A DNA stretch of 64,000 nucleotides from Thermoproteota archaeon (GTDB lineage: Archaea > Korarchaeota > Korarchaeia > Korarchaeales > JAOZGB01), in contig JAVCBU010000006.1 in NCBI GenBank assembly GCA_037917685.1, forward strand, positions 288,001 to 352,000, in the 5' to 3' direction. This document shows positions 5,363 through 25,448 of this stretch, piece after piece (the first letter of the stretch is position 1; each line of letters begins with the position of its first letter). The notes under the pieces were generated by a model. The model was given only the letters and a program-made list of their open reading frames with translations, did no database searches and was not told the origin of the DNA. The position numbers and the translations under genes were made by a program.

Positions 5363-5410
5363 GCCAACCACGAGCCTAAGATATTTAACATTACTCTCCT
5401 ATTTAAAAGA

Positions 5411-6422
5411 ATGATGAGTCTTTAACCCCTATTTGAACCCAGATCTATTGCTATTGTTGGAGCCTCAGAAAAACCAGGCAAGGTAGGCTCAGCAATAATG
5501 AAAAACCTACTAGATATAGGTTTTAAAGGCGAAATATTCCCTATAAACAAATCAGGATATTCGGAAATATTCGGTTTTAAAGCATACAGGTATATAACAG
5601 AAGTCAAGGAGACAGTTGACCTTGCGGTTATCGCGGTTCCAGCTGCCATATGCCCACACGTAGTTCGCAACTGCGGAGTAGCAGGCGTCAAGGTTGCCAT
5701 CGTAATATCATCCGGCTTCAGAGAAGTCGGGAATATAACTCTAGAAAGCTTGTTGAAACGCAAGGGAATTCGGGATGCGGATACTCGGCCCCAACTGTCT
5801 TGGAATATACTCTCCAATCTCAAAGGTAGATACGATCTTTAATCCAAACCTAAGCAGTCAAAGCCATCCCCGGGGGATATAGCTTTGATCTCACAGAGCG
5901 GGGCTCTAGGTGCAGCGATGCTTGACTGGATGACGATGGAGAAGCTTGGAATTTCAAGGTTTGTAAGCTATGGCAACGCAGCCGATATAGACGAAGCTGA
6001 TCTCCTAGAGTACTTAATGACCGATCCTTACACGAAAGTAATCGCAGTTTACCTAGAAGGTGCTAAGAGACCCAGGAAAATGGCTAAGATTATAGCAAGG
6101 CATCCCGGAGAAAAGCCGGTAATAGTGCTAAAAGCTGGCCAGACCAAAGCCGGCGCAGAAGCAGCAATGTCGCATACAGGCTCCCTTGCCGGAGCCTGTT
6201 GTGATAGCACTACTTCAGGCTCCTATGCTCAACGCCGAAAAACTCGTCAAAACCATTGTAAGGGTTAAGAACTCAATAAGGAAGCCCATAGTGGCAGTAA
6301 TGCCTGGAGGCTCATTCTCAGCAAAGTATCGCCTTATGCTCGAAGCTGATAACATACCAGCTTATAACTCCCCTAAGGCGGCAATAAATGCTTTAGACGC
6401 CTTGGTTGCTCACTCTCTCTAA
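5411..6422 (+). pseudogene. Decayed acetate/acyl-CoA ligase (ADP-forming) alpha subunit
   Basis: MMSL-TAA(5423)-PLFEPRSIAIVGAS; GMRILGPNCLG out of frame near 5770; ISQSGALG...SHTGSLAG after a further frameshift; then jumps to a C-terminal fragment (large internal deletion relative to 15002..16351). Confidence 0.85.
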
Positions 6423-6489
6423 GAGAGGCCCAGACTTCCAATATTTTAAAACTTTTAACTTAAAAGGTGCTCGGTAGACATGAAGGCTT

Positions 6490-8427
6490 ATGCTTCAAAT
6501 AGCAGAAGATAATGTGGGTAAGAGAGTCCTCCTAATGGGTAACCAGGCCATCGCCAGGGGAGCCATAGAGGCAGGGGTTCAACTTGTAACTGGGTACCCT
6601 GGGACTCCCGCCTCTGAAATCATAGAAACACTTTCAATGTCTGCAATAGACGCACATATAGAGTGGGCTGCAAATGAGAAAGTGGCATTTGATGTAGCTG
6701 TTGGAGGCGCGATAGTTGGAGCAAGAAGCATGTGCTGCATGAAAAACGCAGGCCTAAATTGGATTGTAGACATGCTCATGACCATAGTCTACGGGGGGGT
6801 TAGAGGCGGCCTATCTATAGTTGTTGCTGACGACCCAGGTGCACATTATTCTAGTAATGAGCAGGACACAAGATTCATGGCATACTATGCCAGGATACCA
6901 TGCTTAGAGCCCTCAAACCAACAGGAGGCGAAAGATCTAACTAAACTATCATTTGAAATATCTGAGAAGTTGGAACTACCAGTCATGGTAAGGTCAGTCA
7001 CAAGGCTAAGTCACTCAAGCGGTGACGTAACATACGGAGTGATCAGAAAGGAAAGGAACAGAGTTGTATTCGATAAACACTGGAAGATACCCTACAGATG
7101 GAATGTCTACGGCCCACCGGGCCCAGTTTCAAAGCATAGATGGCTTATAGAAAGAATGAAACCGGTGGAGGAGATCATAATGTCAATAGGAGAGCCGTAC
7201 AACAAACTTTCGCTTGAAGGCGACGGTAAGCTTGGAGTAGTAGCCTCAGGAATAGCCCATGGCTATGCTGTAGAAGCGCTTAGCTCCCTAGGTCTTAAAG
7301 TAGACTATCTCAAGATTTCAATACCTTATCCAGCACCCAGAAGCCTTCTTACAGAGATAATGAGGAGAAACGAGAAAGTTGTCTTTATAGAGGAAGGAGA
7401 ACCCGTTGTGGAGAACCAGGCAAGAATCATTGCTCAATCCGAAAGGATAGACTGTGAAATCCTAGGTAAAGGCGTAAACAAGGTTCTACCAGAGTATGGC
7501 GAGCTCACCCATGAGAATGTTAGAGTCGCTCTTGCATCCGCTTCAGGTATTAAATATGAGACTACCCGTCCTCCTGCAGGCAAACTCGAGGGAATGGTCG
7601 CCCCAAGATCATCTACACTGTGTGCTGGATGTCCACATCTAGGTATGTATTGGGCCCTCAAGCTAGCATTAGCAAAGAAAGGCGGGAAAGTCCCAATAAT
7701 AAACGGGGACATAGGCTGTTACGAGCAAGGTGGATATGGAATAGCTGCTAAGGAGGTTAAACCAAGCTTTTCCAATGAATCGGTTAAGTACAGGGTTGAG
7801 TCCCCCTATGAGATGCTTGACACCAATTACATAATGGGGGGAGGATTCGGCCTGGCCCAAGGCCAATACCAAGCAGGATACAGGGATGGGGTCATAGTGG
7901 GCCTAGCAGGTGACTCTACATTTTTCCACGCATGTTTGCCAGCGGTTGTAACAGCTGCGCTAAACAAGGCGAATGTTCTGTTCTTAGTCCTAGACAATAG
8001 GTGGACCGCTATGACTGGGCACCAGCCAAGCCCTACAACAGGAATAGATGCTCGCGGCGTGGAAACAATAAAATTAGATATTGAAAGGGTAGCAAAGTCG
8101 CTGGGCATAAAATATGTTTCGAAAGCAGACCCGTGGAATCTTAAGGAGATTCAGAAGGCCATAGAGGAAGCTGTGGAGCGTGAAGGACCGAAAATGGTTA
8201 TATCAGAGCGTGTCTGCACGCTTCAGGCCATAAGACAGAAAAAGCTTAAACCTAAAGCACTAAAAGTGTACGAGGAAAAATGTACAGGATGTAAGTTGTG
8301 TGTGCAGCTTGGATGTCCAGCTGTAACCTTCAATACAAAAACAAAGAAGGCTGGAATAGATCCAATACTATGCGTTGGATGTTACATGTGTGCCCAAATA
8401 TGTCCTGTAAATGCCATAGGTGATTAA
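6490..8427 (+). CDS. iorA: Indolepyruvate:ferredoxin oxidoreductase-family alpha subunit
   Basis: MGNQAIARGA, GYPGTPASEI, NEKVA, DDPGAHYSSNEQDTR, LCAGCPH, GDIGCY, GDSTFFH, LDN.WTAMTGHQP, C-terminal 2x[4Fe-4S]. Confidence 0.9.
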   Translation: MLQIAEDNVGKRVLLMGNQAIARGAIEAGVQLVTGYPGTPASEIIETLSMSAIDAHIEWAANEKVAFDVAVGGAIVGARSMCCMKNAGLNWIVDMLMTIVYGGVRGGLSIVVADDPGAHYSSNEQDTRFMAYYARIPCLEPSNQQEAKDLTKLSFEISEKLELPVMVRSVTRLSHSSGDVTYGVIRKERNRVVFDKHWKIPYRWNVYGPPGPVSKHRWLIERMKPVEEIIMSIGEPYNKLSLEGDGKLGVVASGIAHGYAVEALSSLGLKVDYLKISIPYPAPRSLLTEIMRRNEKVVFIEEGEPVVENQARIIAQSERIDCEILGKGVNKVLPEYGELTHENVRVALASASGIKYETTRPPAGKLEGMVAPRSSTLCAGCPHLGMYWALKLALAKKGGKVPIINGDIGCYEQGGYGIAAKEVKPSFSNESVKYRVESPYEMLDTNYIMGGGFGLAQGQYQAGYRDGVIVGLAGDSTFFHACLPAVVTAALNKANVLFLVLDNRWTAMTGHQPSPTTGIDARGVETIKLDIERVAKSLGIKYVSKADPWNLKEIQKAIEEAVEREGPKMVISERVCTLQAIRQKKLKPKALKVYEEKCTGCKLCVQLGCPAVTFNTKTKKAGIDPILCVGCYMCAQICPVNAIGD

Positions 8428-9037
8428 GATGGTAGTGGAAAACATTCAGGTAATTGTTGCTGGTGTCGGAGGCCAAGGGAGCGTTCTGATATCCCATGTG
8501 ATAGCAGAAGCCGCCATAAGAGAAGGATACTCTGTTAGGGTAGGCGAAAAATTTGGTGCAGCCATGAGGGGTGGAGCTGTTTCGAGTCACGTTCGTATAG
8601 CTAAGGGGGAAATGGCACCCGTAATTCCACTTGGGGAAGCCGACGCCATAATGGCATTAGAACCCCTGGAAGGCCTTAGAGCCATGGTTAAATACCTTAA
8701 GAAAGGCGGTGTTGTAGTCTTAAATACAACTCCCCTATACCCAATAGACGTGAATGTCGGCAGAGCTGAGTATCCAGAAGTCTCAAAGATAATAAATGAA
8801 GCAAAGAGTCTCGGCTTCAAGGTGTACCATCTTGATGCTACATCTCTTGCCATCCAGGCAGGGACAGCTAGAGCCATGAACTCGGTAATGCTAGGGGCTC
8901 TATACGCGACAGGAATACTACCAATAAAAAAGGAAACGCTAATAGAAACGCTTAAGGATTATGTTCCTAAAGGAACAGAGCACGTCAACGAAAAAGCCTT
9001 CAATCTAGGCTTAAAAGCCCTCGGAGGATCTAAATGA
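8420..9037 (+). CDS. iorB: Indolepyruvate oxidoreductase-family beta subunit
   Basis: AGVGGQG, GAAMRGGAVSSHVR, ALEPLE.LR, NSVMLGAL; overlaps iorA stop. Confidence 0.9.
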   Translation: MIKMVVENIQVIVAGVGGQGSVLISHVIAEAAIREGYSVRVGEKFGAAMRGGAVSSHVRIAKGEMAPVIPLGEADAIMALEPLEGLRAMVKYLKKGGVVVLNTTPLYPIDVNVGRAEYPEVSKIINEAKSLGFKVYHLDATSLAIQAGTARAMNSVMLGALYATGILPIKKETLIETLKDYVPKGTEHVNEKAFNLGLKALGGSK

Positions 9038-10311
9038 ACTATGTTGAAAAACTTGTATGTAGATGGTGTGGTAAAGAGTATAGATTCGAAGATGGACCAT
9101 TAACCTGTAGAACGGAGGAATGTCTCGGTAGATTAGAGGTCCACTACGACTATGAGAAAATAAGTGAAAAACTCACCAGGAAAGTGATAGAAGATAGAAG
9201 GGGAAGAGGATTCATAAGATACATAGAGTTGATGCCCCTCGAATCCAATGGACCCATCATAACCCTTTACGAAGGGGCAACACCCCTGATACACGCGAAA
9301 AAACTAGGTGAAAGGATAGGGTTAAGAAATCTCTACCTAAAAGATGAGTCTAGGAATCCTACAGGATCGTTTAAAGATAGACCGATATCAGTAGGGGCGA
9401 ACCGTGGCTTGCAGCTTGGATATAAAGTCACAGTAACAGCATCAAGCGGAAATGCCGCGGCAAGCCTAGCAGCGCACTCGGCAAGAATGAGTATGGCATG
9501 TGTAGCATTTGTACCCGAACATGTATCCCCGGGTAAAGCATCCCAACTCCAACAATATGGGGCAAGGGTTATCCGAGTAAGCGGGCTGGAAAAAGGCGTA
9601 GATCCAACTGTTAAGATGATGAAAACAGCATACGAAAAATACAAGTGGTATCCCTGTCCAAGCTTCGGGCCCTTCAATCCTTACCAGTCAGAGGGAACAA
9701 AAACTATGGCTTATGAGACGGCAGAACAGCTTGGATGGCATGCTCCAGACTGGGTATTTCTACAAGTAGGAGGTGGAGGCTTACTTTTGGGCAACTGGAA
9801 AGGCTATCTAGAGCTGGAACGGCTAGGATTAACGGATAAGATCCCTCGGATAGTTGCCGTCCAGTCAATAGGTTGCATGCCAGTGGTAAGGGCGTACAAG
9901 CAGAAAATGCATCCTCACAGGATAAAGCCATGGGAAAAACCAGACACCATTGCAAGCGGTATAGAGGATCCCTACCCGTGGGACGGAGACTCTGTGCTTG
10001 AAGCGATACAGAAATCTAATGGTACAGCCGTGGAAGTGACAGATAGAGAGATAATCGAAACGTGCAAGACCCTAGCTAAGACTGAAGGGATATTTACAAC
10101 CCCGACAGGAGGGGCAGGCCTCGCTGGAATAGTAAAACTAGCTAGAGAGGGATATATAGATAAAGACGAGGTGGTTTTCGCAGCCATAACTGAGACCGGG
10201 TTGAAAGAGCCTGAAATATTCTACAAAGAGATGGGAATGCCACCTTTGATAGAGCCCAGATTGGAAATACTTGAAGACATGATCTCCAGAGGAAATTTTT
10301 TCACTAAATAG
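9034..10311 (+). CDS. PLP fold-type II enzyme, threonine synthase family (atypical)
   Basis: N-terminal Zn finger, EG.TPL, LKDE..NPTGSFKDR, ASSGNAA.S.AA, EG.KT.AYE..EQL, TIASGI. Confidence 0.8.
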   Translation: MNYVEKLVCRWCGKEYRFEDGPLTCRTEECLGRLEVHYDYEKISEKLTRKVIEDRRGRGFIRYIELMPLESNGPIITLYEGATPLIHAKKLGERIGLRNLYLKDESRNPTGSFKDRPISVGANRGLQLGYKVTVTASSGNAAASLAAHSARMSMACVAFVPEHVSPGKASQLQQYGARVIRVSGLEKGVDPTVKMMKTAYEKYKWYPCPSFGPFNPYQSEGTKTMAYETAEQLGWHAPDWVFLQVGGGGLLLGNWKGYLELERLGLTDKIPRIVAVQSIGCMPVVRAYKQKMHPHRIKPWEKPDTIASGIEDPYPWDGDSVLEAIQKSNGTAVEVTDREIIETCKTLAKTEGIFTTPTGGAGLAGIVKLAREGYIDKDEVVFAAITETGLKEPEIFYKEMGMPPLIEPRLEILEDMISRGNFFTK

Positions 10312-10339
10312 AACACGTAGGAGAAACAGGTGCTAAGAT

Positions 10340-11386
10340 ATGGAGGTTGGAATCCTCAGAGGCCGGGATTACATATCTACCCAGGAATGGAGCATAGACG
10401 AGCTTAAGAAGGTATTAGATCTAGCATTCGACCTTAAAGATAAGCAGAAGAGGCGAGTACCTCACAGGTACTTAGATGGGAAAACATTGTTTCTAATGTT
10501 CTATAATCCAAGTCTGAGGACGAGGAACAGCTTTCAGACTGGAATGTTCCAGCTTGGAGGGCAAGCGATAGACCTTTCACCAAAAGCAGTGTACAAGCCT
10601 GCCCTTGCGGGGGAGGAAATCCCCTATACGACAGAAAGAATCTCAGATGTGGCAAGGGTGTTAAGCAGATATGGGGATGGAATAGCCATAAGGATCTACG
10701 GAGAAGCTGTAAACTGGATCTACGGCAAGGGAAACCTTATAGTTAGAGAGTTTGCCCATTGGGCAGACAAGCCGGTAATAAACATGGAAGATGACATCTA
10801 CCACCCGTGCCAGGCGATGGCGGATCTCATGACAGTCATGGAGTACAAAGGGAGACTTGAAGGTCGGAAGATAGTTGTTAGCTGGGCCTATTCCGGCGGG
10901 GTAAAACCGGTTGCCGTACCGCAGAGCGCAATTCTAATATTTACAAGGTTCGGAGGCGACGTTGTACTTGCCCACCCCAAGGGTCTTGAACTGGATCCCA
11001 AAATAGTTGAACAGGCTAAGAAGAACACTGAAGAGAGTGGTGGGAGCTTTGAAATAAAATACGACATGGATGAAGCATTCGAAGGAGCGGACGTCGTCTA
11101 CCCAAAATCATGGGGCTCCTTAAAATTCATGCCGCCAAACGTACCAAAAGTTGACAAGGAAGGAATGATAAGCCTCATGAACAAATACAGAGACTGGATC
11201 ACAACCCAGGAGAAACTTGACAAATGTAGCAGAAACGTCATTTACATGCATTGCCTACCAGCCGATAGGGGGATGGAAGTTACCGACGATGTAATCGATG
11301 GACCTCACTCAGTAGTCTTCGACGAGGCAGAAAACAGGCTTCACGTCCAAAAAGCAATAATGGCCTTGATAATGGGAGGAGAGTAG
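10340..11386 (+). CDS. Carbamoyltransferase, YgeW/AOTCase-like knotted subfamily
   Basis: FYNPSLRTR.SF, HPCQ, SWAYS..VKPVAVPQ, TRFG.DVVLAHP.G, SGGSF, DVVYPKSW, MHCLPADRG, DEAENRLH; lacks the classical OTC GD..NN and SMG motifs. Confidence 0.85.
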   Translation: MEVGILRGRDYISTQEWSIDELKKVLDLAFDLKDKQKRRVPHRYLDGKTLFLMFYNPSLRTRNSFQTGMFQLGGQAIDLSPKAVYKPALAGEEIPYTTERISDVARVLSRYGDGIAIRIYGEAVNWIYGKGNLIVREFAHWADKPVINMEDDIYHPCQAMADLMTVMEYKGRLEGRKIVVSWAYSGGVKPVAVPQSAILIFTRFGGDVVLAHPKGLELDPKIVEQAKKNTEESGGSFEIKYDMDEAFEGADVVYPKSWGSLKFMPPNVPKVDKEGMISLMNKYRDWITTQEKLDKCSRNVIYMHCLPADRGMEVTDDVIDGPHSVVFDEAENRLHVQKAIMALIMGGE

Positions 11387-11452
11387 TACATACTCACGTG
11401 AACATCGATTCTACTCCCAACCTTTTATTATTTCACATCCTTCACTTATAGG

Positions 11453-12292
11453 ATGAAACCGGCAATAGGTATAATAGGGGGCAGTGGACTTTACAAGCTA
11501 CTCGAACACATGACACCCCGCAAGGTTGAGACTCCTTATGGAATTGTAAAAGTTTTTACAGGTACAATCGGCGAAACAGATATAGTTTTCCTCCCAAGAC
11601 ATGGGGAAGAACATACTGTTCCACCCTCAAAAATAAATTATAGAGGTAATATCTACGCGTTGGCAAAGCTTGGTGTTAAAAGAATTATTGCCACCAACGC
11701 CGTAGGCTCGTTAAATCCCAACATGCCCCCGGGCTGTTTAGCTCTACCCCACGACTTTATAGACTTTACCAAAAATAGAAATTATAGCTTCTTTGATGGA
11801 AAATCAAACTATAAGGTTGGAAATGTAGAAATATGGGGGGTAGCTCATGTTTCCATGACCCCACATCCCTACTGTCCAGAGCTAAGAGACGCTCTCATGA
11901 AAGCCATGTCAAAGGTCGGAGTTAAATGTTTTGCCAAGCAAGCCGTCTATGTATGTACTGAGGGAAACAGGTTTGAAACAGCAGCAGAGATCAAAGCGTT
12001 TAGGATTCTCGGCGGTGACCTAGTAGGGATGACGGGTGTTCCAGAGGTAGTACTTGCAAGGGAACTTGCACTTTGCTACGCAACCATATGTCTTGTAACC
12101 AATTTTGCAGCCGGAATAATTAGTGGAGCAAGGCTAACCCATGAAGAAGTTAAGGAGATTTTCGATAAAAATATAGAGACCGTCAGAAAAGTAATCAAGG
12201 TCGCAGCAGGAATAATACCTGAAAAGAGGAGCTGCACCTGCGGCAAGGCTTTAGAAGGAGCATATACAACCTTAAAGAAGCCTCAAAGCTAA
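11453..12292 (+). CDS. MTAP-family nucleoside phosphorylase, probably 6-oxopurine/methylthioinosine type
   Basis: GIIGGSG, PRHG..H..PP..INYR, AVGSL, EG.RFET.AE, VGMT..PE..LARE; VTNFAAG instead of the VTDYD of adenine-specific MTAP. Confidence 0.85.
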   Translation: MKPAIGIIGGSGLYKLLEHMTPRKVETPYGIVKVFTGTIGETDIVFLPRHGEEHTVPPSKINYRGNIYALAKLGVKRIIATNAVGSLNPNMPPGCLALPHDFIDFTKNRNYSFFDGKSNYKVGNVEIWGVAHVSMTPHPYCPELRDALMKAMSKVGVKCFAKQAVYVCTEGNRFETAAEIKAFRILGGDLVGMTGVPEVVLARELALCYATICLVTNFAAGIISGARLTHEEVKEIFDKNIETVRKVIKVAAGIIPEKRSCTCGKALEGAYTTLKKPQS

Positions 12293-13204
12293 ATCCTTAA
12301 ACCCCTGCTTGTCGAGAAACATGGACAGGAGATCCTTGTCAGGTATTCCTGCCCATCCCCCTATCTTCCTAATTTTAAGGGATGCCATCGCATTGCCAAG
12401 AATACAGCACTCTTCAATACTTAATCCTCTTAGTATCCCATATGTAAAGGCTGACGCAAAGGCGTCTCCAGCACCAGTAGTATCAATCGGCTCCGTTTTA
12501 AAAGCGCTTACTTCCCATGCATCGTCCCCGTCAGATGCTATTACACCTTGTTCTCCAAGCTTTACACAGACTATGGCATTTAATTTTTTGGCTAGCTTCA
12601 TAACAGTTTCCACATTAGGCTTACATTTACAGAGCCTTCCAAACTCCACAGAGTTAAGGTATAGTAAATCTACATTCTCTAATAGCTTGAGGGCCGACCG
12701 ATGGCTTAATGCCTTCAAACCTGGATCCATACTTAACAGACTATCCGTCTGTGTCCTGTAACTACATGCAGACTCAAACAAGTTTAGCCCTATACTTGAG
12801 AGGTGGTATATTAGAGCCCTCCCTACAATTCTAGAGTCTACCTCAATTCTTTCCAGGAAACTATTTGCCCCTCTATAGGAGTAAAGAGCGTGAGCCCCAT
12901 CCATAGAATTTATGGAGATGGCCCTGCCGGTATTAAACCCCTCGGCTACCCTGACCATGGAAACATCTATTCCCTCTCTCTTCATTTCATTGAGTATCCA
13001 CCTCCCATACTCATCATCCCCTATAAAACCAGCAAATGAAACATCTACGCCAAGTCTTGCTAGTCCAACTGAATAGTTAGACGCGCTTCCTCCAGGCATC
13101 TGGTATAACTCTATTATTTCAGCTTTCTCATCCACCCCGGCAAAACGGTCGACAAGAAGTATAAAGTCTAAGTTAATATTTCCAATAGCTACTACTTCAG
13201 CCAT
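12272..13204 (-). CDS. PfkB/ribokinase-family kinase
   Basis: G.INLD, PGGSASN..VGLARLG, IGDD.YG, DTTGAGDAF. Confidence 0.9.
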   Translation of the reverse strand: MAEVVAIGNINLDFILLVDRFAGVDEKAEIIELYQMPGGSASNYSVGLARLGVDVSFAGFIGDDEYGRWILNEMKREGIDVSMVRVAEGFNTGRAISINSMDGAHALYSYRGANSFLERIEVDSRIVGRALIYHLSSIGLNLFESACSYRTQTDSLLSMDPGLKALSHRSALKLLENVDLLYLNSVEFGRLCKCKPNVETVMKLAKKLNAIVCVKLGEQGVIASDGDDAWEVSAFKTEPIDTTGAGDAFASAFTYGILRGLSIEECCILGNAMASLKIRKIGGWAGIPDKDLLSMFLDKQGFKDLALRLL

Positions 13205-13234
13205 GTTATTCAACCGCATCCATCATATTTCATC

Positions 13235-14998
13235 TCACGGATTATCCTCTATTATCGGGTTCACAATCCTACTTTCTAGGACGTTCACGAGTCCCTTTAC
13301 TGTAATCTTAAGTTTAGGTATCACTGGCAAGCATAGAAAGCTTAAGGTCATGAGCGGCTCTCTCAGTCTCGTCCCAAGCATTTCAGCAGCCTCCTTGATA
13401 CTCTCAATCTGCGTTATAACTTCATCTGCCGGCCTATCGGAGACTATCCCTGCTATCGGGAGGGGCATTTTAGCTTTTACCTCCCCCTCTACCACAACAC
13501 ATATCCCGCCCCCCATCTTGTGCACTTCATTAACAGCGTGAGCTATTTCTACATCTTCGACTCCTACTACCACAATATTGTGGCTATCATGAGAAACAGT
13601 TGATGCTATGGCTCCGTGTTCTATACCAAAACCCTTTACGAAGCCAAGTCCAATTTCTCCTGTCCCTTTATGTCTTTCGATGACAGCAATTCTAACAATA
13701 TCTCTTTCAAGATCAGGCTGTATGACGCCATCTACTACATGCAGTTTTTCATGATATGCCTCGGTATAAATGGAGCCATCTATAGCACCTATAACCCTGA
13801 CTCTAACTTCACCATCTACACTGTATCTTAGTTGAAAATCTTCTGGAAACACCATCCTCTTAAGTCTAACAGTATTTATAGCGTACTCAGGGTATTCCAT
13901 TCCTTCAACTTTAGCTACCAGTTTCCCATTGTTTACCACGAGTTCTCCATTGAAAAATACCTTCTCAACTTCTACCTTTTCCAGACTACTCAGGAGGACA
14001 ATGTCAGCGTACTTTCCAGGCGCTATCGCCCCCAAGTCTTTAGAAAGCCCAAATCTTTCAGCAATGTTAATCGTAGCCATCTGAACCGCCTTAACAGGAT
14101 CTAAACCCATTTCAATGGCAATTCTAATTATGTCATCCATATGTCCCTCCTTCTTTAGCTCCTCAATGTTTCTGTCATCTGTCACAAAGACGCATTTTCG
14201 AGTGTCAAGCTTCCTCTCAATTATTGGTTTTAATAAGACTCTGAGATCCTTGGTAAGCGATCCCTCTCTTATCATAAGATAAAATCCTTGTCTAATCCTT
14301 TCCACAGCCTCCTCAGGAGTTGTTGCCTCATGGTCTGAGTCTATACCTGCACATCTATAGGCACATAGCCTACCACCAAGTAGGCCGGGTGCATGCCCGT
14401 CAATAACTCCCCCCATCCTTTCAACAGCCATGATCTTATCCAAGACTTCTTTTTTCCGGTTGATTACTCCAGGGAAATCCATGACTTCCGCGAGGCCTAC
14501 CACAGAGTTGTCTAGCAATAGTTCCATAATGTCCTTTGGACCTATCTCAGCCCCTGATGCATCTAAACCCTTGACTGCCGGGACACATGATGGTACAAGG
14601 ATGAAAAGTCTAAGGGGTATCCTCTTTCCCTCCTCTATGAAAAGTCTAATACCCTTTACACCCAGCACATTTGCTATTTCATGAGGATCAGCAAATATAG
14701 CAGTTGTCCCATGTGGTAGAACCGCCTTGCAATACTCTGAAGGTCTAACATAGCTACTCTCAATATGTAGATGCCCATCCATAAAACCTGGTGTTGCATA
14801 TAACCCTTCAGCATAGATCTCTCTAGTAGCCTTATAGCCATCAAGGTCTCCCACGCATGCGATTCTCCCTCTAAATACCCCTATTGAAGCCTTATATATC
14901 TCGCCAGAATAGACATTAACTAGCTTAACGTTTCTTATAATCACATCTAAAGGCACCGTACCTAAAGCTGAAGCTATCAAGTCATTCATTATATACAC
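13235..14998 (-). CDS. ade: Adenine deaminase
   Basis: PGFMDGHLHIESS, DPHEIANV.G, SCVP, LAEVMD, DGHAP, SDHE, IREGS, VTDD, SHDSHN, L.L.VIP.LKIT; 587 aa. Confidence 0.92.
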   Translation of the reverse strand: MYIMNDLIASALGTVPLDVIIRNVKLVNVYSGEIYKASIGVFRGRIACVGDLDGYKATREIYAEGLYATPGFMDGHLHIESSYVRPSEYCKAVLPHGTTAIFADPHEIANVLGVKGIRLFIEEGKRIPLRLFILVPSCVPAVKGLDASGAEIGPKDIMELLLDNSVVGLAEVMDFPGVINRKKEVLDKIMAVERMGGVIDGHAPGLLGGRLCAYRCAGIDSDHEATTPEEAVERIRQGFYLMIREGSLTKDLRVLLKPIIERKLDTRKCVFVTDDRNIEELKKEGHMDDIIRIAIEMGLDPVKAVQMATINIAERFGLSKDLGAIAPGKYADIVLLSSLEKVEVEKVFFNGELVVNNGKLVAKVEGMEYPEYAINTVRLKRMVFPEDFQLRYSVDGEVRVRVIGAIDGSIYTEAYHEKLHVVDGVIQPDLERDIVRIAVIERHKGTGEIGLGFVKGFGIEHGAIASTVSHDSHNIVVVGVEDVEIAHAVNEVHKMGGGICVVVEGEVKAKMPLPIAGIVSDRPADEVITQIESIKEAAEMLGTRLREPLMTLSFLCLPVIPKLKITVKGLVNVLESRIVNPIIEDNP

Positions 14999-15001
14999 CT
15001 T

Positions 15002-16351
15002 CTAACTTTCACTCTGGAGAGAGGATAGATGACTTAAAGCTTTTATAGCCCTCTCAGGAGTTGGAAAGACAGGTATGCCATATTTTCTAAACTTCTCCAG
15101 CTCCTTTGCCTGAACATCTCCTCCACCCAGGAAAACAGGGATTACTATCCTGTCATATCTGTCTATAACTTCCTTCGTAATCTCTGCTGCTCCAACTATA
15201 GGATCGCCAAATATAAATATGTACATTCCAAAGCCATCCTTAACAGTCGCTTCAACAACTGTTTTATATTGCTCAGCCATGGCGCTGCCAGTAAGATCTA
15301 AGGGATTCCCTATGATGCAGTATGATGGAAGAGCCTGCCTAAGCCTTTCCATAGACTCCTCTGATAAAACGGCTTGTTTTAAACCAGCTTCCTCCAACAT
15401 GTCGGCTGCAAGAATCCCAGCTCCACCAGAACTAGTAACTATGAGTATCTGGTTATTTACGAGGGATTTGTAATACGAGAGAAGTTTAGCCGTATCATAG
15501 AACTCTTCAAGGGACTCGACACTCACAGCTCCACATTGCTTTAATGCAGCTTCAAAAACTACGCTTGAACCAGCCAGCGCTCCTGTATGGCTTGAAACAG
15601 CTTTGGCGCCCCATTCCGTCCGCCCAGACTTCAAAATGACAACAGGCTTACTCATAACGCATCTCCTTAATGCTTCCATAAACCTCCTACCATCTTTTGT
15701 GCCTTCCAGGTATAATGCTACAACCTTCGTCTCATCATCTGAGGCTAGGTAGCTAAGCATGTCAATCTCATCCACATCAGCCTTGTTCCCAAGAGCTACG
15801 AATTTACTTAACCCTATACCATCTTCTTCAAGCATCATTTCCATAAAAGCCCCAACTGTACCACTCTGAGAGACAACAGCGACGCAGCCCTTGGTTTTTA
15901 TTAGAGGCCAGCTTGCACACAGGCCAATGTGTGGGTTATTTACCCCTTGGCAGTTAGGACCAACCATTCTCATCCCGCTTTCCCTAACTACGCTGACAAG
16001 CTCTTCCTCCAAGGTTTTACCTTCCTCTCCGGACTCTCTAAATCCCCCTGAAATTACCACTACACCCTTAACACCCTTTTCAGCAGCTTCTCTGATCGAG
16101 CCTGGGATGAACCTTGCGGGAATAACATACACTGCAAGGTCGACTTCCCCAGGAATTTCGCCTATAGACTTGTACACCTTTAGTCCAAGTATTTCGCCGC
16201 CTTTAGGGTTAACTGGATATATTTCTCCCCTGAACCCTGCACTTAAAATATTTCTAAGTATTACATATCCAAGCTTTCTTTCGTCAGCAGAGGCTCCTAT
16301 AACTGCTACGGATCTAGGGTTAAATATAGCCTCCAAGCCCACCATAATCAT
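15002..16351 (-). CDS. acdA: Acetate/acyl-CoA ligase (ADP-forming) alpha subunit
   Basis: FNPRSVAVIGAS, ISGGF.E.G, GPNC.G, SQSG, GNKAD, SHTGALAG (phospho-His), NPLDL. Confidence 0.88.
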   Translation of the reverse strand: MIMVGLEAIFNPRSVAVIGASADERKLGYVILRNILSAGFRGEIYPVNPKGGEILGLKVYKSIGEIPGEVDLAVYVIPARFIPGSIREAAEKGVKGVVVISGGFRESGEEGKTLEEELVSVVRESGMRMVGPNCQGVNNPHIGLCASWPLIKTKGCVAVVSQSGTVGAFMEMMLEEDGIGLSKFVALGNKADVDEIDMLSYLASDDETKVVALYLEGTKDGRRFMEALRRCVMSKPVVILKSGRTEWGAKAVSSHTGALAGSSVVFEAALKQCGAVSVESLEEFYDTAKLLSYYKSLVNNQILIVTSSGGAGILAADMLEEAGLKQAVLSEESMERLRQALPSYCIIGNPLDLTGSAMAEQYKTVVEATVKDGFGMYIFIFGDPIVGAAEITKEVIDRYDRIVIPVFLGGGDVQAKELEKFRKYGIPVFPTPERAIKALSHLSSLQSES

Positions 16352-16424: not shown

Positions 16425-17756
16425 TTGAGGCGTCCCAAAATACTTGTAACACCACCTGGACCGAAGGCAAGGGAGATAATAGAAAGAGATGAGAGAATGC
16501 TGTCACCCTCGCTCACAAGGACGGCTCCGCTTGTAGGAGTAGAAGCTGAGGGATGCTGGATAAAAGACATAGACGGGAACGAGTACCTAGACTTCGGATC
16601 AGGCATTGCGGTGACTAATGTAGGCCATAGGCATCCAAAAGTTGTGGAAACAATCAAAAGAGAGGCTGAAAAGCTTATATTCGTAAACAGCTGCGATTTC
16701 CACACTGTCCCCCAAGTTGAACTTGCGGAGAGACTTTTCAAAATTACCCCTGGAAACTTCAAAAAAAGAGTTTTCTACACAAATAGTGGCACAGAAGCTG
16801 TCGAATGCGCGATAAAGATTGCAAAATACAAGAGGAGAGGGTACTACTTCATAGGATTCATAGGAGGCTTCCACGGGAGAACCATGGGAAGCCTACAGTT
16901 CACCACGACATCAACTGTCGCAAGGCATAGATTCCAGCCAATGATGCCAGGAGTAATCCATGTACCCTACGCATACTGCTACAGATGCCCCTTCAAACTC
17001 GAATACCCTGAATGTGGAACATGGTGTATAGACTACATAGAAGAAGTGATACTTGAGAAGGTAGCCCCCCCAGACGAGGTTTCAGCAGTAATATTCGAGC
17101 CAATCCAAGGGGCAGGCGGCTACATAGATCCACCTCCAGAATTCATAAGAGGCTTAAGGAAAATAGCGGACGAATACGGCATAATCCTCGTAGACGACGA
17201 AATACAGTCAGGAATGGGGAGAACTGGGAAGTGGTGGGCAATAGAACACTACAACACCGAACCAGACATAATACTTATATCAAAAGCATTGGCGGCAGGC
17301 CTCCCAGCTGGGGCATGCGTTTCCAAAGCCGAGCTGATGGACTGGGCCCCGGGAGCCCATGAGAACACCCTCGGCGGGAATCCAATAATAATGTCGGTTG
17401 CACTAACAGTCCTAGACATCATAGAGGAGGAAAAGCTCCTAGATAACGCGGCTGAAATGGGAAACTACATGAAGAAGAGGCTCAAAGAGATAATGGAGAA
17501 GCACGAGCTTATAGGAGACGTAAGAGGCAAGGGACTAATGATAGGCGTCGAATTTGTGAAGGACAGAAGGACAAAGGAGCCGGCAAGGAACGAGAGAAAC
17601 GCGATAATAAAGAAAGCCTTCAAGAAAGGCCTAATACTTCTAGGCGCCGGAAAATCAAGCCTAAGAATAGCCCCACCGCTAACCATAACACCAGAAGAGA
17701 TAGACGTAGGCCTAGAAATACTAGAAGACACTATAAAAGACATAGAAAGAGGCTAA
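16425..17756 (+). CDS. Class III PLP aminotransferase (GabT/ornithine AT-like)
   Basis: DIDGN.YLDF.SGIAV.N.GH, NSGTEA.E.A.K, FHGRT, EPIQG.GG, DEIQSG.GRTG, SKAL..G.P, TLGGNP, LRIAPPL. Confidence 0.9.
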   Translation: MRRPKILVTPPGPKAREIIERDERMLSPSLTRTAPLVGVEAEGCWIKDIDGNEYLDFGSGIAVTNVGHRHPKVVETIKREAEKLIFVNSCDFHTVPQVELAERLFKITPGNFKKRVFYTNSGTEAVECAIKIAKYKRRGYYFIGFIGGFHGRTMGSLQFTTTSTVARHRFQPMMPGVIHVPYAYCYRCPFKLEYPECGTWCIDYIEEVILEKVAPPDEVSAVIFEPIQGAGGYIDPPPEFIRGLRKIADEYGIILVDDEIQSGMGRTGKWWAIEHYNTEPDIILISKALAAGLPAGACVSKAELMDWAPGAHENTLGGNPIIMSVALTVLDIIEEEKLLDNAAEMGNYMKKRLKEIMEKHELIGDVRGKGLMIGVEFVKDRRTKEPARNERNAIIKKAFKKGLILLGAGKSSLRIAPPLTITPEEIDVGLEILEDTIKDIERG

Positions 17757-22120: not shown

Positions 22121-23347
22121 ATGCAGAAACAAATAGTGGCTGCTGCCTTAATAGCTCTTATAATAGGCGTTCTCGCAGGTTACTTTGCAGCTCCAGCTAA
22201 AGTTGTAGAGAAGGAAGTAGTAAAAGAGGTTCAAGTTGAGAAGAAGCTTAAAGCAGCGTGGATCTACGTTGGGCCTATAGGGGACTATGGATGGAGCCAC
22301 GCGCATGACCAGGGGAGAAGATACTGTGAGAAGATATTTCCATGGCTAGAGACGGTGTACGCTGAGGCTGTAAGCGAGGCTGATGTTGACCGTTACATAG
22401 ATAGGTTCATTAAAGAGGAAGGATGCGATGTAGTCTTTACCACCTCGTTCGGATACATGGACGCTACCATAGCTGCTGGTGAACGTTATCCAGACAAGAT
22501 CCTCTTCCACTGTAGCGGCTATAAGAGGTCCTCTAACGTTGGAACATACTTCGCTGAGTTCTATCAGCTGTATTATCTGAATGGACTAATGGCCGGGGCA
22601 CTCACCAAAACAGGGAAGGTAGGGTATGTGGCTGCCCATCCGATCCCCGAGGTCATCAGGCACATCAACGCGTTCGCGCTAGGGGTAAAGGAGGTAAATC
22701 CCGACGCCAAGGTCTATGTTAGATGGCTATTCTCATGGTACGATCCAGCTAAAGCTAGAGAGGCGGCTGAAGCTCTCATCTCAGAGGGATGCGACTGCCT
22801 AGCGTTCACAGAGGACAGTCCAACAGTGATAGAAGTCGGCCAGGAGCATACCGAAGCAGGTCAGCAAATATACACCTTTAGCCACTACTCCCCGATGCAG
22901 AAGTTCGGCCCTGACAGCTGTGTATCTGGGCAGCTAGTACATTGGGAAGTAATCTACGCAGACATCCTGATGAAAATATACCTTGGAGTATACAAGCCTG
23001 GAAACCTTGAAAACGTAGACTACTGGTGGATGCTAAAAGAGGGAGCATGTGAGCTTGGCGGCGAATTTGGACAGCCAATAAACCCCAAGTTCGAGGACGA
23101 ACTAAAGTCGGTAATCGTTGAAGATCCAATACTAGGCAATATCTCTGTGTACGATCTCGTTATGACAAGACTAGCCCAGATGAGCGAGGAAGTTCCAACG
23201 TTCGACCCATTCACAGGACCCATATACGACCAGAATGGCGTTCTTAGAGTTAAACCGGGAGAAAGGCTTGGTCATGACGCACTGTGGACAATAGACTGGT
23301 TTGTAGACAACATAGTAGGAGAGATACCGGCTCCAGGACTCTGGTAA
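22121..23347 (+). CDS. BMP-family ABC substrate-binding protein (purine/nucleoside type)
   Basis: N-terminal signal/TM; YVGPIGDYGWS.AHD.GR, FTTSFGY, PIPEV.R.INAF.LG, W..SW.DP.K, W.IDW.V..I.G. Confidence 0.88.
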   Translation: MQKQIVAAALIALIIGVLAGYFAAPAKVVEKEVVKEVQVEKKLKAAWIYVGPIGDYGWSHAHDQGRRYCEKIFPWLETVYAEAVSEADVDRYIDRFIKEEGCDVVFTTSFGYMDATIAAGERYPDKILFHCSGYKRSSNVGTYFAEFYQLYYLNGLMAGALTKTGKVGYVAAHPIPEVIRHINAFALGVKEVNPDAKVYVRWLFSWYDPAKAREAAEALISEGCDCLAFTEDSPTVIEVGQEHTEAGQQIYTFSHYSPMQKFGPDSCVSGQLVHWEVIYADILMKIYLGVYKPGNLENVDYWWMLKEGACELGGEFGQPINPKFEDELKSVIVEDPILGNISVYDLVMTRLAQMSEEVPTFDPFTGPIYDQNGVLRVKPGERLGHDALWTIDWFVDNIVGEIPAPGLW

Positions 23348-23460: not shown

Positions 23461-24393
23461 CTATTTTTCTCCTCGTTTGTAGGGTATCCCTAGCGCCGCT
23501 GGTGCACCCATCTTCTTCCGTATCGTCTCTTCAGCCCCAAATATTAACACCACTATTGTTAAGATGAAAGGTAACATCCCTAAGAGGCTTGGAGATATAC
23601 CATAAGGTTGTAGATGATACTGCAGGGCGTCTACCCCCCCGAACAAGTACGAACCTATAGCAGATCTTAAGGGGTCCCACATTGCAAATATCGTTAAAGC
23701 TATCACAATCCACCCTCGGCCTGCGGTCATCCTTTCAATCCATGCTGGCGTGTAAACAACTGATAGGTAGGCACCGGCGATGCCAGCCATAACCCCGCCG
23801 AAGAAGGTGCACCCATACCTTATTAGAGAAACATTAACACCTAACGAGTCCGCTGTCTCAGGGCTTTCCCCAACAGATCTTATTTTTATTCCGAGGCTGG
23901 TCTTAAAGAGTATAAACCATAGCACTGGCACCAGAACGTAGGATATATAAACTAAGGGGTCTTGGTTGAAGAATGCCGGCCCAATAATCGGGATCTCACA
24001 TAGAAGTGGGATCTTGACATCTGAAATGCTTGGGATCTTGACTCCAATATAGGGCTTTCCTATAAGGCCGCTTAAACCTAGGCCGAACATCGTCAACGCG
24101 AGGCCTGAAACAACCTGGTTAGCCATCAATGTTATACTCAGCACAGCATGTATTAACGAGGACAGCCCACCGACCACTGCAGCGGCAGCTATCCCAAGCC
24201 ACGGGTTCCCGGTAACCCTTGTAACTGCAAATCCTGTTACGGCTCCTAAGATCATCATACCTTCAACCCCAAGGTTTAATATTCCTGATCTTTCAGCGTA
24301 AACTTCTCCTAGAGTCCCATAGAGAAGCGGAGTTCCAGCTCTAATTGCAGCCTTGAGTATAGAAGATATTATTAACTGGAGCATGTCCTTCAC
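23461..24393 (-). CDS. Nucleoside-type ABC permease (NupC-like)
   Basis: GE...ERSG.LN.G.EG.M, NQ.VSGLAL, G..IRSVGE.P..AD..G, AGRGWI..AL, APAALG.PY. Confidence 0.9.
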   Translation of the reverse strand: MKDMLQLIISSILKAAIRAGTPLLYGTLGEVYAERSGILNLGVEGMMILGAVTGFAVTRVTGNPWLGIAAAAVVGGLSSLIHAVLSITLMANQVVSGLALTMFGLGLSGLIGKPYIGVKIPSISDVKIPLLCEIPIIGPAFFNQDPLVYISYVLVPVLWFILFKTSLGIKIRSVGESPETADSLGVNVSLIRYGCTFFGGVMAGIAGAYLSVVYTPAWIERMTAGRGWIVIALTIFAMWDPLRSAIGSYLFGGVDALQYHLQPYGISPSLLGMLPFILTIVVLIFGAEETIRKKMGAPAALGIPYKRGEK

Positions 24394-25448
24394 CTCACGA
24401 TTCTAATTCTATACCTTTTCAATATCTCACCCGCAATTATGAAGATAAGAATTATCCCGTTAAATATGTCAATAGCCGCCACAGGCAGCCCCAGCGAAGT
24501 CTGAATTATATCGCCTCCCACGAGGAGTCCTCCGAGAAGTATGGACGACGCAAGCGTAAGCCATGGGTTTAAGCCTCCAAGCCAGGCCGCAATGATGGCT
24601 GTGTATCCGTACCCAGGTGATATCCCCATTCTAAGCCTATGCTGTATCCCAGCGACCTCACCCACACCAGCTATCCCTGCAAGCCCTCCACTTATTACCA
24701 TTACCAGTAGAACGGTCTTCAGATAATTTATTCCTGCATATCTGGCTGCATCTATGTTTTCACCTACAACTCTTATCTCATAGCCCACCTTTGTCTTGTT
24801 AAGTAATATGTAAGTTGCGGCTACAGCTACTACCCCGATAATCAGGGTTGGATAATGTATTCTCGTCCCTGGAATCCTTGGAAGTCTAGCATCTGGTGGA
24901 AACTTACTAGTATACGGGAACCCCCACTCTTCGGGCCCCCTCCAAGGCCCATATACCAGGTATTCCACAAGTTTTAATGCTATATAGTTTAACATCAGGG
25001 TTGTTATAACCTCGTTAACATTCAGCTTAGCCTTTAAAACTGCTGGAAGAAGAGACCACGCAGCTCCAGCCACGAAGCCTACAGCGAACATCAGTGGGAG
25101 AACCACGTATGATGGTGCAGTAAGATTCAAAGCTATACCGGTTGCGGCAACCGCACCTATAAGAAGCTGCCCTTCAGCGCCAATATTCCATATTAATGCC
25201 TTAAAAGCCAATGTAAGCCCAATACCACACAAGAGAAGGGGTATTGACTTTACTATTGTCTCGGAGAATCCATAAAGACTCCCAAAAGCGCCTCTAAAAA
25301 TCTTACCATAGGCTACAGCGGGGTTCACACCGTAGATCCAGAATATTATTGCAACAGCTAGTAATGCAAGGAATAACATGAGAAAACTTACACCTATGGA
25401 TAATAGCTTGCTCTCATACTCCCTTTTTTCAAGTCTAATCCTCATCAT
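24390..25448 (-). CDS. Nucleoside-type ABC permease (NupB-like)
   Basis: WNIGAEGQ, NEVITTLMLNYIA, GYE.R..G.N..AARYAG, GYG.TAI..A.LG. Confidence 0.9.
   Translation of the reverse strand: MMRIRLEKREYESKLLSIGVSFLMLFLALLAVAIIFWIYGVNPAVAYGKIFRGAFGSLYGFSETIVKSIPLLLCGIGLTLAFKALIWNIGAEGQLLIGAVAATGIALNLTAPSYVVLPLMFAVGFVAGAAWSLLPAVLKAKLNVNEVITTLMLNYIALKLVEYLVYGPWRGPEEWGFPYTSKFPPDARLPRIPGTRIHYPTLIIGVVAVAATYILLNKTKVGYEIRVVGENIDAARYAGINYLKTVLLVMVISGGLAGIAGVGEVAGIQHRLRMGISPGYGYTAIIAAWLGGLNPWLTLASSILLGGLLVGGDIIQTSLGLPVAAIDIFNGIILIFIIAGEILKRYRIRIVR

Follow-up and report, generated by a model that had tools for sequence, protein, structure and literature searches.

Which of the genes packed together at this locus act together, and on what? 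The stretch of Thermoproteota DNA analysed here is 64,000 nucleotides long (the window, to whose whole length all positions refer), and at 6490-11386 it carries four tightly packed open reading frames (ORFs) on the + strand. They encode the two subunits of an indolepyruvate:ferredoxin oxidoreductase (IOR) paralog, iorA and iorB, a pyridoxal 5'-phosphate (PLP) enzyme of the threonine synthase (ThrC) family, and a carbamoyltransferase that we name CT1. An earlier interpretation of the letters alone, called here the sequence-only reading, had proposed all four as a candidate energy-conserving ureide operon.

Judged by its sequences and gene neighbourhoods, the carbamoyltransferase/PLP pair very likely serves ureide catabolism, as a module linked to the breakdown of purines and to ATP derived from carbamoyl phosphate. 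The pair very likely works in the manner of the bacterial enzymes YgeW and YgeX while standing outside those families. We put at about 0.55 the probability of a more specific assignment, in which CT1 and the ThrC-like enzyme would catalyse the final steps of the reductive urate (2,8-dioxopurine) pathway in an archaeal version of it, with carbamoyl phosphate as the product from which ATP is made.

The bacterial pathway was worked out in Escherichia coli and Clostridium in 2025 (PMC12507026; bioRxiv 10.1101/2025.04.24.650524). As set out in the main text of these two reports, the route runs through XdhD, YgfK or UacX, SsnA, HyuA, YgeW with YqeA, YgeY and YgeX; SsnA is the marker gene of the uricolytic cluster, and the ATP-yielding step is YgeW with carbamate kinase. 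Supplements apart, neither report mentions archaea, a threonine-synthase-like lyase or paralogous transcarbamylases. A literature search for archaeal versions, including papers that contain both 'yanthine' and 'archaea', found none in the part of the journals that it covered.

The four-gene unit

The unit and the sequence elements at its two ends are laid out as follows.

6441-6452, + strand: A/T-rich, TATA-like box some 40 bases ahead of the iorA start codon, read from the sequence; putative promoter
6490-8427, + strand: iorA paralog; its product has thiamine pyrophosphate (TPP)-binding domains and two 4Fe-4S motifs, and 21 residues are inserted after GDIGCY
8420-9037, + strand: iorB paralog, a subunit like the gamma subunit of pyruvate:ferredoxin oxidoreductase (POR) (PF01558, 133 bits)
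9034-10311, + strand: PLP enzyme of the ThrC family, extended at its N terminus by a Cys-rich (zinc-ribbon-like) stretch (PALP domain, 261 bits)
10340-11386, + strand: CT1, knotted-type carbamoyltransferase (Pfam domains OTCace_N and OTCace)
11423-11433, + strand: T-rich tract 3' of the CT1 stop codon (11384-11386), read from the sequence

The close packing that the sequence-only reading described is borne out. The iorA gene stops with TAA at 8425-8427, and iorB may start at GTG 8420, with an 8-base overlap, or at ATG 8429, 1 base past that stop. The iorB stop and the PLP-gene start share the bases ATGA (9034-9037), with GGAGG 7-12 bases upstream, and the PLP gene ends with TAG at 10309-10311, 28 bases before the CT1 ATG at 10340. 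These overlaps and the 28-base spacer suggest a single transcript for the four genes. The T-rich tract could be the end of the unit, the TATA-like box of the next gene (11453), or both.

One contig of the public run X1 covers 5391-13312 with zero differences; X1 may be the source sample, and its agreement is hence not independent support. The contigs of run X2, which may likewise be the source sample, break at 9031-9060 with adapter-like loose ends. Other contigs of the same genome (G000) are called C1, C6 and C7 below. The assembly is about 95% complete, so genes reported as absent from it are likely, not proven, to be missing.

A carbamoyltransferase that is neither YgeW nor plain AOTCase

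The best curated model for CT1 is NF003384, the NCBIfam model of N-acetylornithine carbamoyltransferase (AOTCase), which it passes with 298.6 bits against a cut-off of 288; two other family members score 311.9 and 276.5, so the family straddles the cut-off. The YgeW models TIGR03316 and NF005538 give 171.7 and 180.7 bits against cut-offs of 500 and 453. Among solved relatives, Xanthomonas campestris AOTCase ranks first (237 bits, about 40% identity), followed by the ornithine carbamoyltransferase (OTCase) of Pyrococcus (227), E. coli YgeW (160) and the N-succinylornithine carbamoyltransferase (SOTCase) of Bacteroides fragilis (139). A structure predicted from 16 family members (pLDDT 90.4) superposes best on AOTCase, with TM scores of 0.87 and 0.91 and an rmsd of 2.1 Å.

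Taken at face value, these matches suit a biosynthetic role, in which CT1 would be an N-acyl-ornithine carbamoyltransferase of arginine synthesis, the PLP enzyme a threonine synthase, and their adjacency a matter of chance. Public names of homologs say the same. The residues that define substrate specificity stand against it. As the discussion of these loops in PMC4581275 has it, knotted transcarbamylases carry a proline-rich loop and a long 120's loop; E92, N185 and K302 separate AOTCase from SOTCase; both of these enzymes place a Trp in their long 80's loop, and their genes belong to arginine clusters; and YgeW is a longer protein with a short 80's loop and a gene near carbamate kinase.

By alignment CT1 has the knotted-group signature, namely the proline-rich loop SWAYSGGVKPVAVPQ and a 120's-loop insertion that is common to YgeW and absent from OTCases, the knot itself being deduced from these loops. 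CT1 resembles X. campestris AOTCase (3kzc and others) in its best sequence and fold match, in its long 80's and 120's loops and in the carboxylate anchors E144 and K252, which are E150 and K256 in CT1. In contrast, none of the three AOTCase specificity residues is kept: in a HMMER alignment to 3m5c and 3l05, Glu92, Asn185 and Lys302 become T98, P190 and E313, and among the 16 family members P190 is nearly invariant and E313 invariant. The 80's loop is extended, but the position of Trp77 is taken by K86, between the invariant Y85 and P87. Two of the three discriminating positions hold the SOTCase-type residue, Pro at 185 and Glu at 302 (positions as discussed in PMC4581275). The likeness to B. 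fragilis SOTCase (2fg6) goes little further, with 139 bits, a lower fold rank and no Trp in the 80's loop. CT1 also lacks the arginine-gene context of both enzymes and has carbamate kinase as a neighbour in 26 of 80 loci of its family (see below). We therefore reject CT1 as a plain AOTCase or OTCase, since the specificity residues, Trp77 and the arginine-gene context all fail.

The YgeW-type motifs seen by the sequence-only reading are real: CT1's WAYS..KP..VPQ, VYPKSW and HCLPAD have near-identical counterparts in E. coli YgeW (TWAYSPSYGKPLSVPQG, IVYPKSW and MHCLPAD, by alignment), and CT1 has no counterpart of the SMG motif of OTCases, which E. coli ArgI and an ArgF-like gene of this genome both carry. 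Of the residues proposed to bind the second substrate of YgeW, K203, K270 and E344 correspond to K189, K256 and E313, each kept in 29 of 29 CT1-clade sequences, and D334 aligns with D309, which is invariant in the 16-member alignment. CT1 is unlike E. coli YgeW in other respects. The two are 34% identical, and CT1 has 348 residues to YgeW's 396, without the terminal extensions (the extra helices of YgeW) and the 240's-loop insert, and with a long 80's loop whose Y85 lies at the position of Gln98. The score of 172-181 bits against cut-offs of 453-500 and the different architecture lead us to reject family membership as well.

A transcarbamylase tree was built by a quick method from 54 of 127 rows, after rows at least 82% identical had been dropped. 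In it sequences of the CT1 type form one clade (29 rows, support 97) and those of the type of CT2, a second knotted-type enzyme of the window, form another (18 rows, support 96). Both fall with E. coli YgeW (support 97) and apart from the OTCases, in a sample without any AOTCase or SOTCase reference and with YgeW on a long branch that the tree does not resolve. The label 'YgeW-like' stands for the shared substrate residues and against a plain (acetyl)ornithine enzyme, and falls for the family. As far as sequence can tell, CT1 is by architecture neither YgeW nor AOTCase, and we propose that it is a catabolic ureido-amino-acid carbamoyltransferase.

A threonine-synthase-like PLP enzyme

An assignment of the PLP enzyme to DpaL/YgeX was considered and does not hold. 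The protein scores 51.5 bits with the DpaL model NF006058, far below the cut-off of 276, and an E. coli YgeX probe finds no match in the genome at E 1e-5, hence no DpaL. The enzyme belongs to the ThrC family instead, where it passes the threonine-synthase models TIGR00260 and NF006050 (202.5 and 320.3 bits; cut-offs 167.1 and 303). Its closest solved relative is the threonine synthase of Aquifex aeolicus (2zsj, 221.7 bits), which lends the biosynthetic role a second support. With this enzyme and that of Thermus thermophilus (1uim) it shares the family, the SFKDR motif of the PLP lysine and scores of 194-222 bits.

The differences are just as plain. The protein is longer at the N terminus by about 56 residues, which carry a CxxC...C pattern, and its gene is linked to carbamoyltransferase and SsnA genes. 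The motif NPYR(I/L)EGQKT of the two solved threonine synthases reads NPYQSEGTKT here, with Gln in place of Arg. Among 30 carbamoyltransferase-linked homologs this position is Q in 20, L in 9, H in 1 and Arg in none, and two relatives of canonical type have NP(Y/F)R. The genome has no match to homoserine dehydrogenase PF00742 (positive controls 14/14), and its best match to homoserine kinase TIGR00191 reaches 29.7 bits against a cut-off of 168. Because the motif Arg is missing and neither homoserine dehydrogenase nor a homoserine kinase above the cut-off is found, a working threonine synthase is unlikely here, and we propose that the protein is the lyase of the ureide module.

Arginine and carbamoyl phosphate genes give a similar picture. 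Searched with E. coli probes and curated models, the genome holds three transcarbamylase genes, namely a true OTCase (365 bits against 281), CT1 and CT2. It has no detectable argininosuccinate synthase (argG; positive controls 14/14), no match to the E. coli ArgB, ArgC, ArgH and ArgG probes, and no detectable large subunit of carbamoyl phosphate synthetase (carB). CT1 is thus not anabolic by this evidence, since a separate OTCase exists, argB, argC, argH, argG and carB are undetected, and none of the 80 CT1-family loci has argB, argC, argG or argH within 10 kb. With the ThrC-like gene also recurring beside carbamoyltransferase genes, we consider a pair of biosynthetic genes side by side by chance very improbable. 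The organism looks like a scavenger with reduced biosynthesis.

Neighbourhoods of the CT1 family

A pattern search with the 16-member alignment returned 80 CT1-family loci of 56-81% identity. ORFs within 10 kb were called and grouped into unlabelled clusters, to which names were assigned afterwards by probes from the window, the genome and E. coli; one of the 80 loci has no full CT1 ORF call. The archaeal hosts include this small Thermoproteota class, Bathyarchaeia, Hadarchaeota, Asgard lineages, Caldarchaeales, Conexivisphaerales and Thermococci, and the family further occurs in Caldisericota, Bipolaricaulota, Eisenbacteria, Thermotogota and others. The neighbours found are listed by number of loci.

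36 of 80: at least two carbamoyltransferase genes
32 of 80: a second carbamoyltransferase with its best match to the CT2 of the window
30 of 80: ThrC-like gene
26 of 80: carbamate kinase (same strand in 25 of 26, within 300 bp in 15)
26 of 80: BMP-type ABC transporter ATPase
21 of 80: SsnA
20 of 80: 489-residue CysK-like PALP protein
14 of 80: aldehyde:ferredoxin oxidoreductase (AOR)-family enzyme
10 of 80: adenine deaminase
9 of 80: XdhA
9 of 80: XdhB
8 of 80: hydantoinase-like protein
7 of 80: PydA-like reductase
3 of 80: YgeY-like peptidase
1 of 80: DpaL-like enzyme
0 of 80: IorA or IorB

Purine markers occur in 38 of the loci and at least one pathway marker in 63; in none is E. coli YgeW the best match of a carbamoyltransferase. 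One compact cluster (L109) holds hydantoinase, adenine deaminase, amidohydrolase, CT2, CT1, carbamate kinase, SsnA, PydA-like, CysK-like and ThrC-like genes and an M20 peptidase, and further compact clusters are found at L117, L058 and L090. Judged by homology, the clusters hold candidates for every step of the pathway, with CT1 and CT2 standing in for YgeW and probably also for YgeY, and the ThrC-like enzyme for YgeX. AOR-family or luciferase-like enzymes adjoin the reductive steps in some lineages.

The likeness to the E. coli YgeW-YqeA-YgeY-YgeX system lies in a knotted carbamoyltransferase accompanied by carbamate kinase, SsnA, hydantoinase, xanthine dehydrogenase (XDH)-type enzymes and a fold-type II PLP lyase. 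The systems differ in that a second paralog, CT2, is usual in CT1 loci and a YgeY-like peptidase rare, that the lyase belongs to the ThrC family and not to DpaL, and that the hosts are archaea and deep-branching bacteria.

The same loci also lend themselves to a pyrimidine or hydantoin reading, in which the substrates of CT1, CT2 and the ThrC-like enzyme would be ureido compounds that arise from pyrimidines or other hydantoins, such as N-carbamoyl-beta-alanine, and not purine-derived diureidopropionate. It can draw on the hydantoinase/dihydropyrimidinase-like proteins and the PydA/PreA-like reductases counted above, on the CT2 gene that follows a dihydropyrimidinase-like gene in the window, and on the class-III aminotransferase and 3-hydroxyisobutyrate-dehydrogenase-like gene nearby in relatives. 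The purine markers argue the other way, with SsnA, which marks the uricolytic cluster, in 21 loci, XDH subunits in 9 each and adenine deaminase in 10. Moreover, it is not obvious what a fold-type II lyase would do after beta-alanine, and the YgeW residues are kept in CT1. We regard the pyrimidine reading as unlikely.

Two side observations concern these neighbourhoods. The 489-residue CysK/CBS-like PLP protein (PALP, 61 bits; e.g. L062:11052-12521), often encoded near CT1 and the ThrC-like gene, lacks an ortholog in the genome of the window. In loci of Caldarchaeales type (L072:4723-5787, L083 and L088), a luciferase-like oxidoreductase, possibly F420-dependent, lies directly before SsnA, which agrees with the Chloroflexota variant in the main text of PMC12507026.

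Closest relatives

CT1 orthologs of 79-83% identity occur in 10 of 40 relatives, and 8 of these loci were fetched. A search across the class, which numbers 30 genomes of at least 80% completeness in the collection used, gave essentially the relatives already included here. Matches below 35% identity were dropped from the first listing of neighbours, and the question was repeated from the neighbours' side. Around CT1 the relatives have SsnA (573 bits against a cut-off of 444), LysA-like and DapA-like genes, an M42 peptidase, adenine deaminase (homologs in 2 of the 8), a BMP-type ABC transporter and AOR-family genes. Across the 40 genomes, which are kin and not independent, so that the association is weak, 8 have a CT1 ortholog with SsnA above its cut-off, 2 have CT1 only, 2 SsnA only and 28 neither.

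The nearest homologs of the ThrC-like enzyme (53-55% identity) are found in genus g6. There the gene lies directly upstream of the CT2 ortholog and divergent from carbamate kinase in two genomes (G020 and G031), and it lies 1.1-1.3 kb from CT2 in two more (G023 and G036). The pairing of carbamoyltransferase and ThrC-like genes thus recurs.

Genus g2 (G002, G004 and others) lacks CT1, CT2 and SsnA. Here a different OTCase-like gene, 43% identical to CT1, adjoins carbamate kinase, for example at G002:C13:80516-82399, and the two are probably a citrulline- or agmatine-type ATP-yielding pair, to judge from this arrangement.

The rest of the pathway in this genome

The sequence-only reading was right that the window contains neither carbamate kinase nor XDH, and the genome search that it called for found both, together with ssnA, outside the window. 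SsnA is encoded at C1:114098-115414 (544.5 bits, cut-off 444) and carbamate kinase at C1:373310-374284 (48% identical to YqeA). Contig C7 has two three-subunit XDH clusters, one of them adjoining an M20 peptidase and an aminotransferase. At C7:36272-44846 (L047) an amidohydrolase is followed by a ferredoxin and an AOR-family enzyme, then by a PydA/UacX-like reductase, another ferredoxin and another AOR-family enzyme, and last by a second hydantoinase. AOR-family genes accompanied by ferredoxins also occur near CT1 in 14 of the 80 family loci, and a tungsten/molybdenum enzyme of AOR type might act on the purine ring, instead of XDH or beside it.

The genes around the unit in the window include a second carbamoyltransferase unit.

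11453-12292, + strand: MTAP-like nucleoside phosphorylase (TIGR01694, 273 bits; cut-off 274.85)
13235-14998, - strand: adenine deaminase (TIGR01178, 625.9 bits; cut-off 472.5)
15002-16351, - strand: alpha subunit of ADP-forming acyl-CoA synthetase (ACD), 59-61% identical to its genus-g4 orthologs, which there precede iorAB
16425-17756, + strand: class-III aminotransferase (PF00202, 411.8 bits)
22121-23347, + strand: binding protein of a BMP-type ABC transporter
23461-27022, - strand: permeases and ATPase of that transporter
27125-28168, - strand: CT2, second knotted-type carbamoyltransferase, 43% identical to CT1, of the sister clade
28196-29560, - strand: hydantoinase/dihydropyrimidinase-like cyclic amidohydrolase directly upstream of CT2 (TIGR02033, 365.3 bits; cut-off 393.25)

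In this second unit the hydantoinase-like gene, whose product is 37% identical to E. coli HyuA, is followed by CT2 and then by the BMP-type ABC transporter.

From these parts a route can be proposed. XDH-type enzymes, a PydA/UacX-like reductase, SsnA and hydantoinase would turn purine bases into a diureido acid, of which 2,3-diureidopropionate is the most likely. CT1 would phosphorolyse one ureido group to carbamoyl phosphate, CT2, behind the hydantoinase, would probably cleave the other, and the carbamate kinase on C1 would turn carbamoyl phosphate into ATP. The ThrC-like enzyme, in place of DpaL/YgeX, would convert 2,3-diaminopropionate (or its mono-ureido form) to pyruvate and ammonia.

Weighing the assignment

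An energy-yielding ureide route in this archaeon, as the sequence-only reading had supposed, is plausible because CT1/PLP clusters recur with carbamate kinase, SsnA, XDH, hydantoinase and adenine deaminase, and because the genome itself holds carbamate kinase, SsnA and two XDH clusters. Several points weigh against the purine assignment. Its substrates we infer from the neighbourhoods, and its reaction direction is inferred too. In this genome the module is scattered, with SsnA, carbamate kinase and XDH on other contigs and in unrelated contexts. None of the 8 fetched loci of the closest relatives has a ThrC-like gene beside CT1, and carbamate kinase, present in 39 of the 41 genomes of the group, does not discriminate. 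In 17 of the 80 family loci no marker lies within 10 kb, and in several Nitrososphaerota/Conexivisphaerales loci CT1 adjoins RNA polymerase genes. The transcarbamylase tree lacks the AOTCase and SOTCase branches, the PLP enzyme passes both threonine-synthase models, and the motif Arg whose loss we stress is presumed by us to bind the phosphate of O-phosphohomoserine, for which a literature search found no support. The pyrimidine reading also draws on the same neighbourhoods.

Some hyperthermophilic archaea make carbamoyl phosphate with an enzyme of carbamate-kinase type, for anabolic use. On this pattern carbamate kinase could supply carbamoyl phosphate here too, and CT1 and CT2 could build a ureido compound, for example a precursor of a cofactor or secondary metabolite. 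The absence of a detectable carB and the 17 loci that place CT1 in housekeeping contexts would agree. The degradative enzymes encoded alongside (SsnA, XDH, deaminases, hydantoinase) and the nucleoside-type ABC transporters speak for catabolism instead, and we give an anabolic role very little credence.

The IOR paralog and its partner

Does the catabolic module extend to the IOR genes? In the sequence-only reading the 2-oxoacid made by the PLP enzyme passes to the special IOR paralog, whose acyl-CoA product feeds ATP formation by ACD, so that iorAB would be part of the ureide route. The stop/start overlaps and the 28-base spacer, with the single transcript that they suggest, speak for such a four-gene pathway, as do an ACD alpha gene and a class-III aminotransferase nearby in the window.

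That the IOR is a distinct paralog with an insertion of its own counts on the same side. IorA reaches 621.4 bits with TIGR03336 (cut-off 650.9) and IorB 186-195 bits with its models (cut-offs 206-238), with the domains of both complete. The insertion after GDIGCY, close to the TPP-binding motif and put at about 20 residues earlier, is real: IorA has 21 residues more than five generic IorA sequences, including the genome's second copy. It is common to the 3 of 3 genus-g4 orthologs aligned and marks this paralog. Among the relatives, orthologs (66-68% identity) are found only in genus g4, while 39 of 41 genomes have a generic IorA, about 40% identical to that of the window; the generic copy of this genome lies at C7:106337-108163.

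In 3 of the 4 g4 loci fetched (G009, G011 and G018), iorAB lies downstream of an intact ACD alpha gene and a class-III aminotransferase, and neither CT1 nor a CT1-linked ThrC-like gene is found beside iorAB in these three; on the short contig of G017 no ACD alpha gene was seen beside it. The aminotransferase keeps its place beside ACD alpha/iorAB in g4 and occurs beside the ThrC-like gene in G023. A trace of the same partner survives here directly upstream of iorA.

5426-6420, + strand: decayed ACD alpha-like gene (Succ_CoA_lig domain on 5885-6268; in-frame TAA at 5840; frame change at about 6200-6270)

Run X2 reads T>G at 5867 within this pseudogene. An inversion of about 6430-15000 would give back a g4-like order with the intact ACD alpha gene at 15002-16351.

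Archaeal IOR acting with ACD is known in Pyrococcus and Thermococcus. The window copy resembles that system in its two-subunit IorAB with TPP and 4Fe-4S motifs and in the ACD alpha partner kept in g4. It differs in scoring just below the IorA and IorB cut-offs, in the 21-residue insertion, in being a second copy beside a generic IOR and in having a pseudogene for its former ACD alpha neighbour. We conclude from these comparisons that iorAB encodes a paralog of 2-oxoacid:ferredoxin oxidoreductase that is restricted in lineage and has ACD alpha as its conserved partner. It is joined to the CT1/ThrC-like pair only in this genome.

The four-gene pathway can still point to g4, where carbamate kinase, an M20 peptidase and a further PALP enzyme are encoded 7-8 kb away from iorAB. 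Against it, an IOR gene is a neighbour of CT1 in none of the 80 family loci and, at 35% identity or above, in none of the 8 loci of relatives, and the conserved partner in the three g4 loci is ACD alpha. In addition, pyruvate, the expected product of the lyase, is a substrate of POR rather than of IOR. We consider it quite improbable that iorAB takes part in the ureide route, and the IOR step of the earlier scheme is not supported. What had been named as its refutation, a plain enzyme in an unconserved gene order, is found in one half: the order of the four genes is not conserved, but CT1 is no plain AOTCase or OTCase.

Gene pairs of 636 and 184 amino acids near CT1 in relatives were considered as a second IOR and rejected; they encode AOR-family enzymes with ferredoxin-like subunits. 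Upstream of ACD alpha-iorAB in one g4 locus (L147:1-6978) lie an M20 peptidase, carbamate kinase, a zinc-dependent alcohol-dehydrogenase-like gene, a 3-hydroxyisobutyrate-dehydrogenase-like gene, a 354-residue PALP enzyme, a class-III aminotransferase and a methyltransferase, which may form a further island of amino-acid or ureide catabolism.

Other genes in the window

The MTAP-like gene downstream of CT1 probably lies outside the ureide module, as it is a neighbour in none of the 80 CT1-family loci. Together with its neighbours it falls in two gene groups (11453-13219 and 30517-32595) that comprise MTAP-like phosphorylase, pfkB/ribose-1-phosphate-kinase-like, RuBisCO-like and IF-2B-family (ribose-1,5-bisphosphate-isomerase-like) genes. 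This set resembles the archaeal pentose-bisphosphate route for nucleoside ribose.

The hydantoinase-like protein at 28196-29560 also clears the pyrC_multi domain cut-off (320 against 279). No classical aspartate carbamoyltransferase was found in the genome, and an orotidine-5'-monophosphate-decarboxylase-family gene is present at C6:259832-260419. The hydantoinase-like protein and CT2 may serve in a divergent PyrB/PyrC role.

Implications

In the main texts of the 2025 reports the reductive urate pathway is described only for gut and other bacteria. We tentatively suggest, with the odds somewhat against us, that purines are fermented along a separate form of this pathway in anaerobic archaea not yet in culture and in several bacterial phyla that branch deeply. 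In this form CT1 and CT2 would phosphorolyse both ureido groups of 2,3-diureidopropionate to give two carbamoyl phosphates, and so two ATP per purine instead of one, and a ThrC-derived lyase would replace DpaL; here, joined to an IOR paralog, the 2-oxoacid might also be oxidised for ATP. If the purine assignment is true, two large families publicly named 'N-acetylornithine carbamoyltransferase' and 'threonine synthase' are misnamed catabolic enzymes, and the transcarbamylase family would gain two new substrate classes. It would also mean that archaea of sediments and hot springs that scavenge nucleic acids ferment purines with a substrate-level gain of ATP.

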